A stretch of 61,672 nt of DNA, filler included, from Dugesia japonica (lineage: Eukaryota), in assembly GCA_001938525.1 (NCBI GenBank). It is 6 parts of 6 records of this genome, joined end to end, with 100 filler letters (N's around TTAATTAATTAA, not from the genome) between each part and the next. Parts side by side here need not be neighbours in the genome. Positions count along the whole stretch, not along the records: positions 35,064 to 43,184 come from MQRL01190073.1; 5 more parts are not named here. One strand, given 5' to 3'. The notes below the pieces were generated by a model, which had not been told where the DNA came from, searched no databases, and was given only the letters and a program-made list of their open reading frames with translations. Both the position numbers and the translations under genes were made by a program. Shown piece by piece: positions 20,640 to 41,415 of this stretch; the first letter of the stretch is position 1; each line of letters opens with the position of its first letter.

Positions 20640-20925
20640 CTCAGTGCGTCACTATCTTGACTAAAGGTTGTTGTAAATGGATTTTGATAACGAATTTTAT
20701 TGTACACAATTGGTTTCGATAATTTTGATAAAATTGCGACACCAACATTGACAAATAATAAAATGCTAGTGTATCAAAGACAAACATTAGAGTAGCACCC
20801 AATGTTATCCACCTAGATTTGATGTATGAGTATTGAAAATTAGGGTTTATTTACTGGAATATCATTTGGAAGTTTATTTAGAACATAAACACCTAGCCGT
20901 GCTAATCCAAGACACTTTGATGCAA
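20640..20925 (-). pseudogene. Polinton adenain-type cysteine protease remnant
   Basis: LGVYVLNKLP...FNTHTSNLGG*HWVLL...RYQNPFTTTFSQ, the decayed NT..S..PG.HW and Q......CG motifs. It lies directly downstream of a major capsid gene. Confidence 0.7.
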
Positions 20926-20989
20926 TCCAATAAATCTGAATAGAACTAATTAATTAAATAATAAATAATATAATAATTCTTAATTTATT

Positions 20990-22437
20990 ACAATTTTTTC
21001 AAGAATACACAACATTGTGTACACTAATAGTGTACTGTTGGCTTTTTTCTGAATTTTTTTTTCAAATACTCCATAAATTATAACATATGCCGATAATGTT
21101 AAAGCTTTGGCAAACTTGATATACAATCTCAAATTTCCTTGTTGAGGTAATTGACTGTGATTTATATCAAAATCTGGAGAAAGAATAAATGTAAAGAAGG
21201 GATAATTGTCCTTAAAATCTTGAAGTGTTATTCCGCAATTCATATACTTATCCAAATATCGCATTTTTTTACTATAGATTGCATATATGTTGAAGTATAG
21301 TTATCGTTTAAAAAAATCTTGAGTATATATTTCTCGATAATCAATGTTTTTCGTCAAGGAAACATAAACAGTATCTAAATTTTGAAATGTTGGACTCGAG
21401 CTTGTATAACTACTATTATATTGTTCTCCACTTTGAAATGTAACTAGAATAAATTAGGTGATCGACGATCACCAAAGATTTGTTCCTTATAAAACAATGA
21501 ACTATATTTACTAATTGCAAATGCAATGACTTCCTTGGTACTTATCGGATAAATAGCATTTTGCTTTTTAGTCCCAAGTGATGAGCAGCTAATACTGAGG
21601 GCTCAATTTGTACATGTCTAACTAATAATATTGTATCTAGTAAAACATATTTAGGTTCATTGGCTGCAGATTCCAAACAAATCTTCGAAGATGCTCTTTT
21701 CAATCGAATATGAACACTGACACCTGGAATAAGGTATTTCGATAATTCATGAAATTAAATAGCAATGAACCGCATAGAGACAATTGTTTTGATGTTTCAA
21801 TAGACTTTTATTTATCTGCATTTGTTCCATATCCCATTTATGTAAGACATATATTTTTACTATCACCATTATAATTTATTATAGTTTCAATTAATGCTTT
21901 GTGAAGATAAGATACATTTCCACTTATTAAACTTAATTATTAAACGAAAGAATTACATCCTTGAAAGGTGTATGCAACATATAATTACTAGGAATGATAT
22001 CATGAGTGTCTAGGCTTGCCAACTCTCCCGTTTTTTCCGGGATTCTCTCGGAACTAGATTTCATCTCCCATCTCGGCACTATCTTTGACTCGGGAGATAT
22101 AATTCTCTCGTCTTATGTTTTTGCAAAATTTATTTGTTCATATCCTTTTGGTATTAGTCATCATAACATTAAAATCACACACATCATCATCATGTATAAG
22201 TTGTGACAGTGTCAACAAAAAATGAAAACCAGTTTTTATATTTTTTAAGCGTTATAAATTATAATGCTTGCAATTTTATAATCTCCCGGGTTCGAGGTTG
22301 TAGGTAGTTCCATCCTTATCAACTACCTTCACTTTAATATGCAATGAAGTATCATTCAAATTCAAATATTCTGTTCGAGATCCATTTATAAAATACTCTA
22401 CATCGCTTTGCAATTCAGAAATTGAATTCATAGGAAA
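20990..22437 (-). pseudogene. Polinton/Maverick major capsid protein, copy 2 (decayed)
   Basis: N-terminal part FPMNSISELQSDVEYFINGSRTEYLNLNDT...SNYMLHTPFKDVILSFN aligns with the 35.4-35.8 kb copy. C-terminus GNLRLYIKFAKALTLSAYVIIYGVFE is typical of Polinton MCP. Confidence 0.85.
22010..22289. mobile_element. Small hAT-like insertion interrupting MCP copy 2
   Basis: Starts TAGGCTTGCCAACTCTCCCG. MCP homology stops and resumes on either side. Confidence 0.55.
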
Positions 22438-22741: not shown

Positions 22742-24052
22742 TACTACCATGATCAAATAAATATCCGGTCAACTCAATTTAAAATGAAACAAACTATTTA
22801 TTCAACACAATTTTAATTGTCACCTTCGAAGTAGTCTCCATTAACCAAAATGCACCTATGCGAGCTTGTAATCCAATTTTCAAATGCATTCTGGAACTCC
22901 TTCTTTGGTATACCCAACAACGCGTCCTTCATTTTTTGTTTGATCGCTTCAGTGGTATCAAAAAATTTTCCTCGAAGTGGGTTTTCAGCCTAATCAATTG
23001 GAAGAAGTCGCAAACAGCCATACCTGGTAAATTTGTTGCATTTTGGATGGTATTTGTATTGAATTTTTGCAAAAAATCTCGAATAACTATTGCATTGTGA
23101 GCTGATGCATTGTCATGGTGAAAAATCTAGGAATTGTTTCTCTACAAATCTTTTCTTTTCAAACAAACAGCTTCAACCAATTGTCTCATAACACCTAGAT
23201 TATACTCCTTGTTGACTTTTTGACCTTTCGGAATAAATTCATGGTGTACAACTCCATTGTAATAGATGAAAACGGTCAGCATGACCTTACTTTTTGATTG
23301 AAAACGACGTAGTTTTTTCGGTTTTTGCTCTTCCGGAGACTGCCTTTGACTTAATTGATGTTTGTTTTGAGTTTCAAACTCAAACATCCATGTTTCATAA
23401 CCAGAAATTTTACGTTTTATAAATGTTTCATCAGAATCAACGTTAGAGAGCCTGTTCTTTGAAATTTAAATAAGACTAAATTTTTGAAAAATGTTCAATT
23501 CTCATGGAACAAGTCTTGCAGCAACACGTTTCAATCCCAAATCCTGATGCAAAATTGTTTGAACTGTTCAAAATGATATTTCTGTATCTTCAACAATCTA
23601 TCTGATAGTCAATTTCTTATTTTCTATTAATAATTACTTTATTTCTTTGATATTTTCTTCGTTCTTCGAGGTTGATGGTCTTCCAGATCTAGGATCATCT
23701 GTGAAAATCGTCATCTAAAAATCGCGCATACCATTAATTAGTTGTTGATTTTGATAAAGCATTGTTGCCACAGAACTTCTGTAGCATTTTCAAGGTATCG
23801 AGACGTTTAATTTCGTTTTTGACGCAGAATTTAATTCAAATTCTTTGTTCAATTGTATCATCAATCTTACATATAGAAGATAACATTAAAATTAATTTAA
23901 ATAAATTACTGTAGCTTTTTCAAATTACGGTCTGTTCAGCTGAAATTTGGTGATGTAGTAAAACAAATATGTAGCAACTATTAAAAATACGAATTACATC
24001 TATAGCATTTGTGTGTGAATTTTAAATTGGGTTGACAGTGTATTTGGTAGTA
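22742..24052 (-). mobile_element. Near full-length mariner element (decayed)
   Basis: TIRs TACTACCA...TCAACTCAATTTAAAAT and ATTTTAAATTGGGTTGAC...TGGTAGTA. Transposase pieces EQRI*IKFCVKN, DPRSGRPST, SKSKVMLTVF..GVVHHEFIPKGQKVNKEY and FHHDNASAH. Confidence 0.92.
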
Positions 24053-33239: not shown

Positions 33240-34890
33240 ATGGCAAATATGGAATCCATTTTGCGTTTATTCAAAAAATAGAATCGAAAAACTTTTAATT
33301 CAATCTTTAAATGGGATTATCATTTATAATTGAAAAATTATTACTATTTTTAAATATATTTTAAATGCCCAAATCCAATTCAGAATCTTTTACAAGTTCA
33401 GAGAACTTCATCTCATCAATTAAAAATTGTATTCGATATAGGAACTAGTTTCTCAGGCATTGAAGAATTTATTGAATTATTCTCTAAGTCTGCCGCAGTT
33501 TACAATATCTCTTTCAAAATCAAGCAAAGAAACAAATAAAATATAGTACTGTCATGCAAGGATTCTTCCTGCTCGTTTAAAGTCAATGCATATTTTAAAT
33601 CCATTAATAATACTTGCTCGGTATCGAAAATGGAATCTTTTCATTTATGTGGATCCTCAGATTCCACACCCTATATGAATACACTGATTAAAAGTGCTAT
33701 TAGAGACCGTGATGCTCGATAGGTCAAGTCTAATTAGATCATTAGCATTATTAGGTGTCAATATAGTTTGGAATTAGATTATAGTAGAGCTTATCATGCA
33801 ATTAATAGCTATAAATATAAGCAAAATATTATCTTGAATATTATGAATATTTAAATTCAATGATCTCATCGATTGATACTAGTTCTGCAATTACTGATCT
33901 AGAAGTAGAGAAAGGCCATTTCAAAAGATTTTTCATGACTTGGAATGCAACTAAAACACTAGATGTCAACTTTAGAAAGATCATCACTGTTGATGGAACT
34001 TTTTTATCGGGACCAAAAAAGGGTACATAATTAGTTTCTGTTGCACGAAGCGGAAAAGATCAATTAGTCTTATTAGGATTTGCAATAGTCGATCTGAGAA
34101 TCTGGATAGCTGTAAATATTTTCTAAGAAATCTAAATCTAATTCAAAATGTCCTATCAACAGATATGGCAAAAATACTTCGAATGCCACTGAGTAAATGA
34201 ATTCATCTCTCAAAAAATAGGTTACTCAAGATATATGAAATCTAATTGTTTAACTGAATAATCATACGATGCAAGTATTTAATAAAAGAAGAAATGAGGA
34301 AATGAATTATTCCATTTTCCACAAGCAATTATCTCGTTTAGAGTCAAATACTGCTCTAGGTAGATTGCTGACAGTAAGCCAATGCAATAATAATATTTTT
34401 TTGTTAGACAACAAATTCATTATTAGTTGCTGATATCTATGATATCATGGACTGCAACTGTAAAAGATCCTTTGAATTTGGCGTTCTTTGTACGCACTTG
34501 TGCTCAATGCTTTTGCTTTTAAGAAATGATCCAGCACTATTAGTTGAGGAATTTTATACATCATATAACTATTCAAGAATGTATGCGGGGTTTATCCTTT
34601 CAATGACAAGATATGATTTAGTCAGAGGGGGTCTATTGGCGCCTAATTTAAGAAGAGCCAGGGGAAGATCTAGAATTGCTAGATTCAGATCTTCGTACGA
34701 AAATTAAAGTTATACTTTAAATATTTTTAGTATTTTATATGATTTTCAAATATATTATTATATAAGTGATAGATCTTAATTGATGGTTTTGAATTTTAAT
34801 AGCTTAATATTTTTATATTTTGAATTAAATGTTTTTCGATTCTATATTTTGAATAAACGGGAAAATGAATTCTATATTTTAAATTGCCCC
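33240..34890 (+). mobile_element. Mutator/MULE transposon (decayed)
   Basis: MULE DDE segment IITVDGTFLSGPKKGT*LVSVARSGKDQLVLLGFAIV; SWIM finger CNCKRSFEFGVLCTHL; RRARGRSR tail; long inverted repeats at about 33247-33304 and 34820-34880. Confidence 0.88.
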
Positions 34891-35063: not shown

Positions 35064-35179
35064 GAAAAAAAAACCATCCCAAAAATCATGTCACTAAAAA
35101 TCATGTCACCATCGTAATGTGTTTTCGAGCCCCCCCCAGTGCTATGTGAGTAGTGACAATGCGCTACTATCCCCCTACT
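35064..35179. mobile_element. Terminus of a further, probably Polinton-type element abutting the MCP gene
   Basis: Ends CCAGTGCT...ACTATCCCCCTACT, resembling the end at 42297-42319 (CCAGTGCTGCACTATCTACCTACT). The MCP reading frame runs right up to 35180. Confidence 0.55.
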
Positions 35180-35790
35180 TTTGCATCCTGTATTTCATAC
35201 TTGGGTTCATAAGCTGCTGATTCCAAACATAATTTTGCTGGAGCTCTCTTCATTCGAATATGTAAATTAACACCGGGAATAAGATATTTCAGTTTATCCG
35301 TAAAGTAGAGTTGCAATGATCCACATAGAGTCAATGATTTTGATAATTTATGCCACTTTTTTCTATCTGCTTACGATCCATACTCCATTGCACTTACACA
35401 TATATTCTTACTATCACCATTATAGTTCAGTACAGTTTCAATCGATGCTTTTTGAATATTTGTTCCGTTTTCCCTTTCAATCTTGATATTATTAAATGAT
35501 AGAATGATATCTTTGAACAATTTATGCAGCATATAGTTGGAAACCATTGCTCCTGAAGCTTCAACCAAAGCCTTGTTTGTCTTATCAACTACTCTTATTT
35601 GTACGTATAACATAGTATTATTCAAATCCAAATATTTAGTTTGGGATCCATTGATAAAAAACTCTATATTATTCCTGCTTTCGGAAAGAGAGTTCATAGG
35701 AAACACATCTTCAAATGCATCATATTCAATCACTGCTTGAGGAGATGAACGGTCAAAAATACGCAATGAATACGCAATAAAAACTTGATT
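35180..35790 (-). pseudogene. Polinton major capsid protein, N-terminal part
   Basis: PMNSLSESRNNIEFFINGSQTKYLDLNNTMLYVQIRV...NYMLHKLFKDI...IETVLNY...KYLIPGVNLHIRMKR. Confidence 0.88.
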
Positions 35791-36185
35791 TCTTGCGGTT
35801 TTTATGTCCAGCTGCTGATGTTGTGGTAACCGATTCCACTTTTGGTTGATTTTTTAGAAGACTAGGTAATTTACTTGATATACTTGACGGCAACATGTTT
35901 GCAACCTTTGAAAACATACTGGTCATACCGGATGGTAATGAAAAAACTGCATTACCGAGCTCAGCCATTGCATTCTTTTTCAAAGTCGCCAATATCTTTC
36001 AATTATTAGCCAGTACATCCTGAGCAGTTTTCATAACAAATGAGCCAATACGCTTATGAATAAGACTTGTAAATCTCTCGATTGTTCGCAACCAACCAGA
36101 TCCTATATTGTTTACTTATAAAATATGGCAATTCCCCACCAGCTTAACTGCTGCTATACAACGAAACAATATCCGGATTAGTCAT
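35770..36185 (-). pseudogene. Polinton small amphipathic (membrane-active/core-like) protein
   Basis: MTNPDIVSLYSSS*AGGELPYFISKQY-fs-GSGWLRTIERFTSLIHKRIG... has QxGG/QxGxG adenain-site-like motifs and sits between the minor and major capsid genes. Confidence 0.7.
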
Positions 36186-37171
36186 TTGGTTTTCAAAAAT
36201 GTAAAGTTAAATGTGTGTTTGAATGTTTTGGAAACTTTATTAATTTTCCGTTATCATCGCGTATATTAATTTTATACTGTTTATACATGATGTTGCAATA
36301 GGTAAATACATTGAATTCTCAACTATTATTTGCACTACTTCATCAATTTTATGTTTGTCTATCCATATTGATTTCAACAAAGGTACACTAACATCACCAA
36401 CAATTATAGCTTCAACAAGAATACTATAGATGAACATTTGCTGATGTAACTTCATTATTTTTAATTTGGTAATAGCTATGAACTCACTTCCGTTCATATC
36501 TGTAGGAGAATATAATTGTTTGTCTATTACCAATGTTCTTGTTAAGACATTATAAAATACAACTTTTTAACATCATATTGTAGATCGAATTCAAAATATT
36601 TATCTGCATTTAAAAGACATTTCTTAAATATTTGAGTACAATTTTCTGATAAATATTTACTTAATCGTTCTAATTCTAATATGTATATAACATCTTTAAA
36701 CTGGAAAGTATGATAATTTACCTTTGCATAAGCTACTTTTACTTTTACTGTTTGTATTGTGTCATCATTTGCAAAGTTTGTTAATTTGTTAGATTTAAAT
36801 CCTAATCCAAATGAGTGTGCAATATTTGCATCTTCACAATAAAAAGTCACAATAAAATCACAATAAAATCTTATGAGATTCTTTTCAAATATTTCAATAT
36901 TTGCATTTTCATCAACATTGATCGCTTTTTCCTTGTTATTTATTGCTACAGTTATTTCATTCAATATATTTTTTGCGGTCAAGTATTCAATTTTCGACTT
37001 GCTTTATAATAGAAACGGAGAATACAGAAAGGTGAAATTCATCAATGCAACTTACCAAGCACCATTCAGGTAAATTGCATTTTGAAGTTCAACAATGAAT
37101 TTACTGGCTGTATTATCGGGATGAACACGTCAACTACTATTGCTTGGCAAAAGCATATAGAAATCATTCAT
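36178..37171 (-). pseudogene. Polinton minor capsid (penton)
   Basis: MNDFYMLLPSNSS*RVHPDNTASKFIVEL...W*VAL; MFIYSILVEAIIVGDVSVPLLK; C-terminal IRDDNGKLIKF...THLTLHF. Confidence 0.88.
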
Positions 37172-38169
37172 ATTAAATGTGATGCAGATATCTAATTTGG
37201 TCTTTCATATCTAACCCACTTGATATATAATTCTTTATTAACTTTTCGTTTCGTCTTGAGTACTTTTTCTCTATATATCTCTGGTCGTGGAATGACGTGT
37301 AACTTGTGCTCATAGAATTTACCCTGATCTTTGTTCATGATCTTTAATTACATACATGACGGGATTCTGTTTTAAATTGATATTTTCTATTTGAAACACT
37401 TCATCGCTCCAATTAGTATCGAAATTCTTGATGAAGGGGAAAGCTGATATCTTTGATATTCTAACATGGTTACCAACTTTATATTTCGGATTTTTGACTA
37501 CTTTCTTATCTTGTTTGCTTAACCATAACTTTAGTTGATTGTTTGATTTGACACCAAATGGTCTTGTTTCTTTCAAATCTTTATGACTAGAATTATTATA
37601 ACTATGAATTTATTTCGACAAAAAATTTATTCAGGTTTTCTTTCCAGTATGCACAAAGTATTTTTTCAAAGCATCTCTTAATGTTCGATTAAAACTCTCT
37701 ACAGTGCAGCCTTGTACTGTGAATGTACTGTATAATGGTTTATTTTTAAATGTGCTAATAGATTTTTAACTTTTGAATTATAAAATTCCTTACCCAAATC
37801 AGTTTGTATATTATCTTGAGACCCAGTCTTCAACATTGTTTTGATTGCAGTTTCCAAGCCGGTGGCAGATTTAGGTTTTACTGTAATTACACGTGCAAAT
37901 CTGCAAAATACATCAATACACGTCAAAATATACTTGTATTCCTTATTAATTTTCGAATACGGAATCATCTCCATCAAATTCATTTGCCATAAATTGTTAA
38001 TACCATATGTCTTATAGGCTCTCGTTGGGAATCCTCTCAACATTGGCTTGTTCAGACTGTATACCAGCTGATTTGCCAACCACTTTTGTGTCTTATTTTT
38101 CGATTTTTGAGCTTCTTTCATTAATTTTTTTATTCCTCAAAACCCCTGTTCGCTTTTGGGTTTGTCCAT
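37170..38169 (-). pseudogene. Polinton retroviral-like integrase with C-terminal chromodomain-like tail
   Basis: LWQMNL (first catalytic D decayed to N), YILTCIDVFCRFA, IQTDLGKEFYN, RFNRTLR, PKYKVGNHVRIS, NWSDEVFQI and LYIKWVRY. Confidence 0.92.
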
Positions 38170-38269: not shown

Positions 38270-38572
38270 TCAAATGCTGCCTTTGCAATTGGTAATAGAG
38301 CTGCAATGAAACTACCATCTGGTTTATGGATAACCTTTCTCATCAGCCTTTTATTTTTGCTATTTACAAGACTCAATAGTGACTTTTTATGTTTTTTCAA
38401 TACTTCCTTTTTAGCTTTGCATACATTAACATTACCGTGAACAATATTTACAATGATTTCTAGCAAGTCATCAAAAACATATGTGGGAAATGACTGCAAA
38501 TCTTTTATTCTCAAGTGTTTTGATGATTTGAGCAATGCATTAAAAAACGGAAGACTATGTTGTAATTTCATA
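38270..38572 (-). CDS. Conserved small basic Polinton protein
   Basis: LLEIIVNIVHGNV...KEVLKKHKKSL...RKVIHKPDGSFIAALLPI matches the N++.GNV...QxGGF+..LLP pattern of Polinton core-like proteins. Confidence 0.7.
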
Positions 38573-38597
38573 TTTAAGTAAAATACATCTTGATTGT

Positions 38598-38828
38598 TTA
38601 TAATGATATCCACTTTCTCTTTACGCTTTTAAGCTTTTTTCCATACATTTTCTACAGTTTTTTGAATGTTATCAACTCATTTATCTTTAGAATTTTCTTT
38701 TCAATTTTTCTCTTTCCAATCTTACTCTTTACTACTGGTATATTTACTACTGGACGTTTGACAGTAGGCACTCGTTTTCTTTTAACGGTTTTTACCTGTA
38801 TAACTATAACTTTTTTAAATTTAGACAT
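38598..38828 (-). pseudogene. Short, very basic ORF after the ATPase (possibly an internally deleted Polinton gene)
   Basis: MSKFKKVIVIQVKTVKRKRVPTVKRP...KKL*KMYGKKLKSVKRKWISL*, with one internal stop. Confidence 0.45.
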
Positions 38829-38829
38829 T

Positions 38830-39469
38830 TATAAATAACATATTTACCTCGATTGTTTATATATTGTAACACCTTTAGAATTCCAAATATCTGTTCTAAC
38901 ACTCAATTTATCTGGACATTCTTTAGTGAAGTCGAGAAAAGAATATCCGTGCGCGTTTTTTGTTGCATCCTGAAATGATTCAATAAGATATTGTCTGTGT
39001 TTGAATATGTCTGTCTTTCTAAAAAATCAACAACTGTTTGATCCTTTGGGTTCTTCAATAGAACCAGGTATTGAACATTTAAGTTTTGCGTTCTGTGACT
39101 CCCACCACTATGAAATAGATTTTTGGTAATGAATATCATAGTCACGCCTATATATCTTGATATCTTTGTGAATAAATTATTAAAATCCTTTTCCTAGTTT
39201 GCTTCGTGGAACAAATCATCAATTATAATGACATCTCTCGGTTTCAATCTTTTGCTCCAATTATTATCGAATCCATTTTTAATTTTCATTTTGATATTGC
39301 AATATTCCAATTGAGTCGCTCTCTTCTCTTCATCAGCTCCTCTTTGCCAATATATTTTGTTGAATTTAGATTTGAACAAGTCTGATTTCAATAATTTGCA
39401 TACAAACAAATTTTTTCCACTGCCGCTAGGACCGAAAATTTGATAGGTTGCATCGCTTCTCGATTACAT
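38830..39469 (-). pseudogene. Polinton A32/FtsK-like packaging ATPase
   Basis: Walker A IFGPSGSGK, Walker B VIIIDDL, and IFITKNLF...RTQNLNVQYLVLLKNPKD. Confidence 0.92.
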
Positions 39470-39546
39470 ATTTCCTTAAAATAAATTAATGCTTTGTGTA
39501 TATCAGTTGTTTAAATACATCAATTAAATTAATTAAAACGAAACCT

Positions 39547-39580
39547 TATAAATACGAATGTAATCAAAGACCAATCATTT
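39547..39580 (+). promoter_or_regulatory. TATA box and Inr-like site of the TBP-like gene
   Basis: TATAAAT at 39547-39553, TCATTT about 28 nt downstream, ATG at 39584. Confidence 0.6.
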
Positions 39581-39583
39581 ATA

Positions 39584-40032
39584 ATGCTTGTAAATATTAA
39601 TTACATGGGGAAAGTAGAGAAAGAAGTAGTAAACAAGATGAAATTTCCAATTGGAAAACCATGTCAAGTTGCTGTCAAAACTGGAAATCATACTATAATA
39701 TTCTTCAAGTCTGATAATTGCAGAATAATGGGGTGCAGAAAACCATTAGAATTAAATGAATTGCAGTACCCCATAGAAGACATTTGGTTGCAATCTCTGA
39801 CTACCGTATTTAATTTTGGGCAAAGAATTTATTTGTATAAATTATCGAAAATAGCAAAATGCTTGTTTGAACCGGAATTATTTTCCAGGTTGCGTATTAC
39901 AAAATTCAATCCAGTATGTGTAAACGTGTTTTCAACGGAAAAAATAGTGATACTCGCATAAAAAATTTTAATTATGGGGGATATGTTGATAATATTATAT
40001 GCGACATATACAATTTAATTGAAAAAATATAA
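39584..40032 (+). CDS. Polinton-encoded compact TATA-binding-protein-fold protein (one 3' frameshift)
   Basis: Repeat 1 TIIFFKSDNCRIMG (compare TBP TALIFSSGKMVCTG). Repeat 2 LQSLTTVFNFGQRIYLYKL...FEPELFSRLRITKFNPVCVNVFSTEKIVIL (compare IQNMVGSCDVKFPIRLEGL...YEPELFPGL...LLIFVSGKVVLTG). Restoring one G near 39956 gives VILGIKNFNYGGYVDNIICDIYNLIEKI*. Confidence 0.8.
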
Positions 40033-40195
40033 TACCTACTAATTGAAATACAAATGCATGCACTGAACATGCTATAATGTTCTACAAATTTGAAATTATT
40101 TTATTAGTTAAACTATATTTGTTGGTGAGTGAGTTTGTGTGTATAAAATATGTAAATAAGCAGTTGCATATTCATTAATAATCAGTTTTTTTACA

Positions 40196-40690
40196 ATGTA
40201 AAAATAAAAAGAGAGCCAACATTAACCAATATTTTACCATTGGATCCAGTTGTCATTAAATCACTCAATCATGCTGATAAGATTATTATTTTTTTTTTTA
40301 ATTATTTTAATTATTTTTGTTTTCAGAAGAACAAATATTGATCAACATTAAGAAGGAGCCAACAATAAGACATGAAATGACACCAGAACTGTTGGATCAA
40401 TTCAGTAATCAAAGTAAATTTTTATTTTATTTATTAATATTTGTTTATTATTTTTTTTTATTTTAGATATTATGAAAGTAATATTCAATAAATTGATTCC
40501 GGGATTTGTCAAATCATCAAAATCCTGGTTGAAAGAGAAATATTTCAAAAAGGTTGAGGAAGAGACCTTCTTGGTTATTCACGAAATCATGTTGCAGTTA
40601 TAAAACTTGATCCAGTATACGTGCTATACTCCGAGTTTAAGTTGTAGATATCATGGGTACAAATTTGTGATTATATGTCATTTATTTTTT
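40196..40690 (+). pseudogene. Spliced Polinton accessory gene, unknown function
   Basis: TATAAAA at 40142, TCAGTT at 40180, ATG at 40196; acceptors at about 40326 and 40466. Peptides KIKREP... | EEQILINIKKEP... | IMKVIFNKLIPGF... Confidence 0.5.
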
Positions 40691-40879: not shown

Positions 40880-41415
40880 GTACAATAAAAAACCTTAACA
40901 CCAAGATTAATTGTCAATTTTGTAAATAATTAATTGCCAAATTGGTGTTGCTTGAAATCCATGCGTCTTGTATCCTTTGATTTCAACTTGCACTGGGCAT
41001 TTCATTGAATTTTTATTTGTTTCTTCAATTCTCACCAAAAATATTTTAACCCGTCATGCCATTTCTAGTTTCATTCAATTAAATAATATATTTAAAGTCT
41101 TCTGATCATTTTCACTGATATTTGACACCAACATACTGAATTCACAGTTTTGAATTCTAATCGGATCCTAAATAAATAGATAATTTATATTATAACAATA
41201 AACATTACTTGAAATGTATATGTCAATCTCTTCTTCAGGAAAAACATTTCCTTTCCATGGAAATTCTTTGGATTGTTGAAGCATTGTCTGCTGTAACTTT
41301 TCTATCCATCTTTTTTTGTAAAAATGAGAATCCACAAGCAAGCAGCTTTTTATATACTATTTCGAAATTGTGTGTGTATCCTTTATGGAATATAATTGGT
41401 TAGCATATAACCATT
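40880..41415 (-). pseudogene. Second spliced accessory gene near the Polinton terminus
   Basis: Coding-like tract with an intron of about 40 nt (41169-41208) and several stops. Confidence 0.35.

Follow-up and report, generated by a model that had tools for sequence, protein, structure and literature searches.

A TBP-fold gene of Polintons, decayed in a fragment from Dugesia japonica, and a promoter box that it may read

Does a Polinton carry a TBP of its own, and which promoters would such a protein serve? The question is raised by a small ORF in the genome of Dugesia japonica (assembly GCA_001938525.1), for which a first-pass annotation had proposed a TBP-fold protein encoded by a Polinton/Maverick, used either to redirect host Pol II to element promoters or as a TBP decoy. 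The window, i.e. the whole stretch of DNA analysed, comprises 61,672 nt with filler included; it is gapped and AT-rich, with a GC content of mostly 20-33%. The wider issues are the timing of Polinton gene expression and the extent to which animal Polintons are virus-like. From a dedicated TBP together with a matching box before the virion genes, a viral late programme would be predicted; the idea reduces to one small protein, here called mini-TBP, and one 8-bp site.

The mini-TBP copy and its surroundings

The features of the locus are listed in Table 1. For the mini-TBP gene, the reading frame was determined by tblastn of the intact relative P0002 against the window. Residues 1-125 match in one frame with 66% identity and residues 110-149 match in a second frame (E = 2e-7), ending near 40030-40032. 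Since P0002 aligns in two different frames, the window gene is considered to be frameshifted at the position given in Table 1. The two matches together cover residues 1-149; an ORF of about 149 aa after one frameshift repair had been annotated. Both TBP half-repeat signatures quoted at the time are present in the ORF, and the alignment confirmed the shortened repeat 1 and the absence of an N-terminal extension. The C-terminal helix of the family, which comprises the last ~25 residues, is out of frame in the window copy. At residues 44, 102 and 119 the copy differs in columns which at least 17 of 19 relatives conserve, and the number of departures is four when the break point at residue 125 is counted; for comparison, 17 of the 19 relatives have 0-3 departures and two have five. 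Judged from its sequence, the window copy is a pseudogene and is predicted to be inactive.

Table 1. Features of the Polinton fragment (positions along the whole window)
Feature	Position	Strand	Remarks
Canonical TATAAATA box and initiator-like TCATT	39547..39579	+	TCATT 30 nt downstream of the box, A at 39577
mini-TBP gene	39584..40032	+	ATG at 39584, 125 codons in first frame, stop at 39959-39961; frameshift near 39955-39961; C-terminal helix lies in a different frame that ends at 40032
Weak remnant of accessory gene c2	41218..41280	-	E 0.003
Two one-mismatch YATAAACR versions	39495..39515	-	46 and 33 nt before ATPase ATG
Packaging ATPase	38850..39469	-	broken (early stop and frameshift); ATG at 39469; two frames match L016 ATPase in tblastn (64% and 49%)
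YATAAACR box	38854..38861	-	precedes small basic ORF
Small basic ORF (58 aa)	38655..38828	-	ORF reading
YATAAACR box	38595..38602	-	precedes conserved gene c3
Conserved Polinton gene, cluster c3	38284..38589	-	48-50% to L001 and L004
Retroviral-type integrase, frameshifted	37174..38157	-	Pfam rve E 4.7e-9 at 37702-38136
Putative minor capsid gene, broken	36196..37162	-	tblastn E 9e-22 to cluster c6; no Pfam match
YATAAACR box	36278..36285	-	inside minor capsid gene, ~105 nt before pX-like gene
pX-like small virion gene, frameshifted	35885..36179	-	E 1e-16 to cluster c17
Major capsid protein (MCP), N-terminal half	35176..35766	-	45% to L009 MCP; stops just short of assembly gap

The box upstream of the mini-TBP ATG and the initiator-like motif are predicted to form an early-type promoter of this gene, used by host TFIID. 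Position 39547, from which the first-pass annotation let the feature run, is that of this box. Canonical TATA boxes had been reported for the gene and for its neighbour. This applies to mini-TBP (TATAAATA at 39547) and to the neighbour downstream (TATAAAAT at 40142), but not to the window ATPase, before which no canonical TATA box was found. The TATAAAAT box is followed by a small, apparently intron-containing gene (~40140-40600, plus strand) with two IKxE motifs recognized by eye, which we take to be SUMO-like.

On the minus strand, the order of genes is ATPase, small basic ORF, c3, integrase, minor capsid, pX-like gene and half of the MCP, and five genes of this array are broken or cut short. 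Like the mini-TBP copy, and to an equal degree, its neighbours are decayed: the genes for ATPase, integrase, minor capsid and the pX-like protein are all broken. Three Polinton traits are found in the window: a retroviral-type integrase, a packaging ATPase, whose relative from L009 passes Pox_A32, and, by homology to L009, a double jelly-roll MCP. The modelled L009 MCP is a double jelly-roll similar to the capsids of iridovirus, PBCV-1 and mavirus (E = 2.5e-16). Cluster c6 is presumably the minor capsid protein, a name given from gene position, and cluster c17 is assumed to be pX-like. The fragment retains three intact YATAAACR boxes, all of which lie on the minus strand, and the plus strand has none. 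Further out than the mini-TBP gene lies a weak remnant of c2, an accessory gene that sits beside the TBP gene in related loci. No pPolB, which is present in related loci, was found in the gapped window, and no pair of terminal inverted repeats was found for the fragment, which adjoins an assembly gap; the element is therefore described as a fragment without a located end. Thus, the mini-TBP gene had been placed correctly next to a divergent ATPase, with the two start codons 115 nt apart, but the terminus on its other side was not borne out. On the whole, the earlier observation is confirmed in part: the gene is real, and its position next to the terminus was not confirmed. The element is a decayed Polinton fragment.

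A second, more decayed Polinton fragment lies at 20657-22437 (minus strand), where an MCP gene, whose DNA is 73.5% identical to that of the first copy across 344 nt, is followed by a weak protease remnant. This remnant is the only trace of adenain in the window; the gene is present in related loci. Also on the minus strand, 23145-23465 holds a fragment of a mariner-type transposase (Pfam Transposase_1, E = 4.7e-10). On the plus strand, broken ORF pieces at 33350-34704 show motifs, identified by eye, which we assume to resemble a Mutator-type transposase; a short inverted pair (33245-33311 / 34812-34879) may represent the ends of that element.

Fold and Polinton linkage of the mini-TBP family

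The window protein alone had no match in Pfam and only one, unrelated, match in the PDB (E = 1.4). A search of the Atlas with the same protein gave TBP clusters at 0.95; because the recognition value of 2128 is below the 2300 mark, this assignment was treated as weak. The fold was determined from the relatives. All 22 relatives submitted passed the Pfam TBP family (PF00352) with 42-70 bits at a cut-off of 22.9. The family profile matched 35 PDB sequences, all of them TBPs or TBP fusions (best E = 1e-20), and a profile-profile comparison with cellular TBP gave 99.35% (E = 5.6e-21). The AlphaFold2 model of P0002 (pLDDT 90.7) has the two-lobed TBP saddle fold. Its five top chains out of 48,161 are all TBP, with Z 10.3-12.0 over 143-146 of 149 residues and an rmsd of 2.7-3.3; the best non-TBP chain has Z 7.4. 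Foldseek gave a TM of 0.61-0.74 to TBP chains. The proteins of this family, ~150-170 aa in length, have the TBP fold, so that the profile comparison and structure prediction suggested beforehand turned out positive. The family is large: 414 proteins, some of them possibly cellular TBPs, match its profile at E 1e-15 or better, and 56 clusters of 50% identity match at E 1e-30 or better. No relative was found in a viral contig collection searched with family, L072 TBP, capsid and ATPase queries, and a phage collection searched with the capsid gave no match.

Residues were counted in 157 rows, non-redundant at 80%, out of 182 family rows, using yeast-like numbering mapped through P0320; for positions without a citation, the functional roles are those which we presume. 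Kept are N69 (138 of 157), F116 (152), E186 (144), E188 (154), F190 (156) and F207 (155). Changed but fixed are position 99 (Pro in 144), 122 (Arg in 151), 124 (Met in 155), 159 (Ser/Thr in 155), 194 (Arg in 120), 203 (Cys in 118) and 205 (Asn in 155). Both TFIIB-contact glutamates, E186 and E188, are present in the window copy as well. Concerning the DNA-wedging phenylalanines of canonical TBP, three of the four are kept and the full set is not; the loss of Phe99 depends on the alignment, since it was called by MAFFT in a region left unaligned by hhalign. Hence, the residue check which had been proposed came out in favour of both TFIIB glutamates and, incompletely, of the phenylalanines. Some basic backbone contacts (yeast positions 107, 196 and 201) are apparently lost. 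DNA binding could be weak, because one wedging phenylalanine and some basic contacts appear to be missing. The stretch holding helix H2 most often has 19-20 residues in the family versus 32, and 19 in the window copy. The P0002 model has no helix between the lobes, and the N-lobe surface with helix H2, to which TFIIA, TAF1, Brf1, Mot1 and NC2 relate, was not recovered. According to the available passages of PMC7221094, the two C-lobe glutamates contact TFIIB, and the N-lobe binds TFIIA, TAF1, Brf, Mot1 and NC2. Kinks in the TATA box, at steps 1/2 and 7/8, are produced by the four phenylalanines (PMC10005294, available text), and positions 194, 203 and 205 are those mutated in the altered-specificity yeast TBPm3 (PMC1636458, available text). 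From these residues, we infer that mini-TBP may be a TBP which still docks TFIIB, does without the regulators and reads a different DNA.

The locus set consisted of 80 metagenomic loci (L001-L080) and four loci from an ATPase search (L081-L084); ATPase, integrase, capsid, protease and pPolB were scored as core genes. At least one core gene was present in 38 of the 80 loci and in 27 of the 36 loci of at least 3 kb. L071-L080 carry other TBP types and were left out of the family counts, which are 33/70 for all loci and 25/33 for those of at least 3 kb. Seven of the eight long family loci without a core gene hold accessory genes known from core-bearing loci. As in Polintons/Mavericks (adintoviruses), the genes around mini-TBP in the relatives are ATPase, rve integrase, double jelly-roll capsid, adenain and pPolB. 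Their order varies; of the 24 loci holding both genes, 21 have the ATPase on the strand of mini-TBP and downstream of it. The head-to-head layout of the window was rejected as a family trait, as it occurs in none of these 24. The check proposed beforehand, whether homologues flank Polinton ATPases, thus bears out the Polinton linkage, but not the divergent arrangement. In the ATPase search, which was made without selection for TBP, L081 has a gene of the mini-TBP family and L083 has another TBP type next to a TFIIB gene; in L082 and L084, both partial contigs, no TBP was seen and the gene could lie outside the contig. The contigs of L081, L082 and L084 are Polintons filed in bacterial metagenome-assembled genomes, likely due to binning contamination.

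Pairwise dN/dS had a median of 0.18 (range 0.055-0.49) across 51 pairs with >60% identity and dS 0.05-1.5; three pairs are of the L073 type and the pairs are not independent. The family is under purifying selection, which answers the question about dN/dS raised in the first-pass annotation. In a quick IQ-TREE phylogeny of 96 rows, a branch with SH-aLRT 99 separates 71 family rows and L070 from 10 cellular TBPs as well as from the types of L071, L073 and L083. The separation from cellular TBPs requested for comparison is thereby given; the tree covers neither named TRF2 nor named viral TBPs.

That the gene is a one-off retrocopy of a host TBP, decaying inside the element, has next to no probability. 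The copy is intronless and broken, as a retrocopy might be, but it has 61-66% identity to six intact relatives (closest relative E = 1.7e-49) versus about 20% to cellular TBP, it nests among its closest relatives within the family in the tree, and its neighbour genes are equally decayed. The many proteins matching the family profile, even if some are cellular TBPs, also speak against a single event. The Polinton context of the relatives, which is found in several gene orders, rules the retrocopy out: mini-TBP is a Polinton gene. With TBP fold and Polinton linkage both holding, the original interpretation is supported overall, capture from the host being a possible origin of the gene.

The YATAAACR box and a possible late programme

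On reading the upstream regions of the family loci, a recurrent [TC]ATAAAC[AG] was noticed. It was scored as ATAAAC[AG] within 120 nt upstream of the first ATG for 84 distinct starts of ATPase, c3, integrase, minor capsid, pX, major capsid and protease genes. The box precedes 74 of these 84 starts and is found before 0/84 on the reverse strand, with a Markov expectation of 4.5 starts (maximum 12 in 200); the loci share ancestry and studies and are thus not independent, and controls are few and partial. In an unbiased count, ATAAAC is the top hexamer (77/84 starts). When lineages were defined by 60% TBP identity, 15 of 17 have the box at most starts, and the two misses had one start each. L081 has it at three of three scored starts. 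The mini-TBP gene itself has the box at only 2 of 58 starts; a canonical TATA box was found before 29 of 67 TBP starts of all types. No box was found in loci with other TBP types (0/8 starts) or in L082-L084 (0/13 starts), of which L082 and L084 are partial contigs.

The distance from the box to the ATG of the ATPase is 31-37 nt in 15 of 21 cases, overlapping the canonical TATA before the TBP gene, which clusters at 35-47 nt. Spacing is looser for capsid (32-83 nt) and integrase (52-92 nt) and mostly about 98 nt for pX; some boxes are located 7-19 nt before the ATG. Among protease starts 3/8 have the box, and among non-virion starts PLA2 has 7/9 and LRR 5/5. Boxes within genes concentrate in the last 120 nt (76 versus 22 elsewhere). 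A codon artefact was rejected, as both possible frames are used equally (38 and 38), and an AATAAA poly(A) signal was rejected because the base before the box is a pyrimidine in 72 of 79.

We consider it likely that an intact mini-TBP binds to YATAAACR, brings in host TFIIB and Pol II and switches on the capsid, packaging and integrase genes. Its target is likely a variant of TATA and not the TATA box in its canonical form. In the proposed sequence of events, host TFIID would transcribe the mini-TBP gene early, from its canonical TATA promoter. The rewired DNA face (Arg122, Met124, Asn205, with Phe99 apparently lost) would prefer C at box position 7 and tolerate C at position 1. The kept acidic stirrup would dock TFIIB of the host, because no TFIIB gene was found in the family loci: a TFIIB query from L083 found only L083 itself among the 84 loci, which are mostly partial, and had no match in the window. 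With the N-lobe helix lost, mini-TBP may be free from control by TFIIA, TAF1, Mot1 and NC2. Bound to the box, mini-TBP would then recruit host TFIIB and Pol II, and the virion and integrase genes would be turned on.

Two other readings were weighed against this mechanism, each of them improbable and to the same degree. In one, mini-TBP is a decoy whose stirrup soaks up host TFIIB or blocks host promoters, and host TBP reads the box as a weak TATA variant. The stirrup is among the best conserved parts, and the loss of Phe99 and of some backbone contacts points the same way. The C(-25) TATA variant is presumably TATAAAC. Since wild-type TBP has been crystallised on the C(-25) variant (PDB title 1qn3), host TBP could read the box. 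However, the new residues of the DNA face are as invariant as the stirrup (R122 151, M124 155, N205 155 of 157), which suggests a specific ligand. Nor would a decoy account for the scarcity of the box before the TBP gene and its absence from loci in which the family was not seen, and sequestration of TFIIB would probably starve the genes of the element itself. Of the two roles offered originally, redirection of host Pol II accordingly gains from the matching box and the kept TFIIB glutamates, and a pure decoy has less in its favour.

In the other reading, the box is a late signal read by a different factor of the element or host, or an initiator or RNA-processing signal, and mini-TBP does another job on DNA, e.g. 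at the termini in replication or packaging; gene and box would then co-occur by shared descent. The tree places the family on one side of a branch, so that gene and box may each be a single ancestral gain. The boxes closest to the ATG fit this reading, as do zinc-finger and KilA-N genes as potential readers, but the latter are limited to a subset of the loci. Moreover, the box is a two-position TATA variant at TATA-like spacing, and the pyrimidine before it is at odds with a poly(A) signal. Binding of the box by mini-TBP is thus preferred.

Whether the scheme extends further is evenly balanced: a large Polinton lineage may run an early-to-late cascade with one altered-specificity TBP of 150 residues on a private YATAAACR, and other lineages may have solved the same problem separately (TBP plus TFIIB in L083; a fuller TBP beside PC4, with GTAAGAA, in L073), so that TBP surfaces and boxes would co-evolve as orthogonal pairs. 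Should the mechanism hold, it would parallel late transcription in herpesviruses independently, offer a naturally minimal TBP in which the docking of TFIIB is uncoupled from control by TFIIA/Mot1, and be a candidate for an orthogonal pair of promoter and factor. All that the window shows of it is a fossil copy; many related elements keep the mini-TBP gene intact.

Comparison with known systems and other TBP types

Mini-TBP is a member of the TBP fold family, though not a canonical TBP. With cellular and archaeal TBP it shares the two-lobed saddle, the C-lobe stirrup with both TFIIB glutamates, Phe116, Phe190, Phe207 and Asn69. It differs in size (about 150 aa versus 180 in cellular TBP), in the N-lobe, where the stirrup and helix H2 are cut back, and on the DNA face, where Phe99 is apparently lost and Arg122, Met124, Asn205 and Ser/Thr159 are near-invariant.

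Among viruses, KSHV ORF24, EBV BcRF1 and HCMV UL87 are TBP mimics associated with a TATT ~30 bp before the start of late genes; they bind Pol II via an N-terminal domain and act in a six-protein complex (PMC6541308, available passages). Mini-TBP resembles them in combining a viral TBP fold with a modified TATA before structural genes. Unlike ORF24, BcRF1 and UL87, it lacks an N-terminal extension, retains the stirrup for TFIIB and is associated with YATAAACR instead of TATT, and Pfam scans of neighbour representatives gave none of the herpesvirus pre-initiation partner proteins. By analogy, mini-TBP would work like the beta/gamma-herpesvirus mimics without being a member of that group. Structural matches of the mini-TBP model in BFVD have 9-19% identity. 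TBPs of Nucleocytoviricota share the viral TBP fold and an eroded regulatory surface of the N-lobe; in the available text of PMC7221094, their TFIIB-contact positions are diverged and many of these viruses carry their own TFIIB. Mini-TBP, in contrast, keeps the TFIIB glutamates.

TBP had been described as not known as a standard Polinton gene. This needs a small correction, since one 'TBP' label on a Polinton-like virus already exists in the figure legend to the MELD virus maps, in the section on non-animal datasets (Starrett, PMC8502044). The label may or may not refer to mini-TBP. In the parts of that source available, it is undiscussed, and the animal maps (Fig. S2) do not include it in their text labels; nor does a promoter box come up there or in the available part of the preprint (10.1101/697771). 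This legend was the only published TBP in a Polinton-like element found, and no paper with the box in a Polinton context was found, in a literature search which covered few subscription papers; the accessible parts of PMC12220804 and 10.1101/2022.05.25.493380 contain no relevant passage.

Several loci carry other TBP types. In L083 (4714-5828), a 173-aa TBP gene overlaps a gene for a TFIIB of 212 aa, which has Pfam matches to TFIIB and the zinc ribbon, and YATAAACR is absent; this Polinton sits in a bacterial genome bin and is probably a contaminant. A third Polinton type (L073, L074, L076, L077 and L079) has a fuller TBP in which Phe99 is retained. PC4 coactivator-like genes lie next to it, and near gene starts GTAAGAA, strand-oriented, takes the place of YATAAACR. 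Two adjacent TBP-domain genes lie by capsid and protease genes in L071 (2065-3582), one of them full and the other a weak single-lobe match fused to other sequence. Accessory genes near mini-TBP (L021, L029, L031, L041 and L042; L048, L053, L054 and L063) include those for leucine-rich-repeat and KilA-N/zinc-finger proteins.
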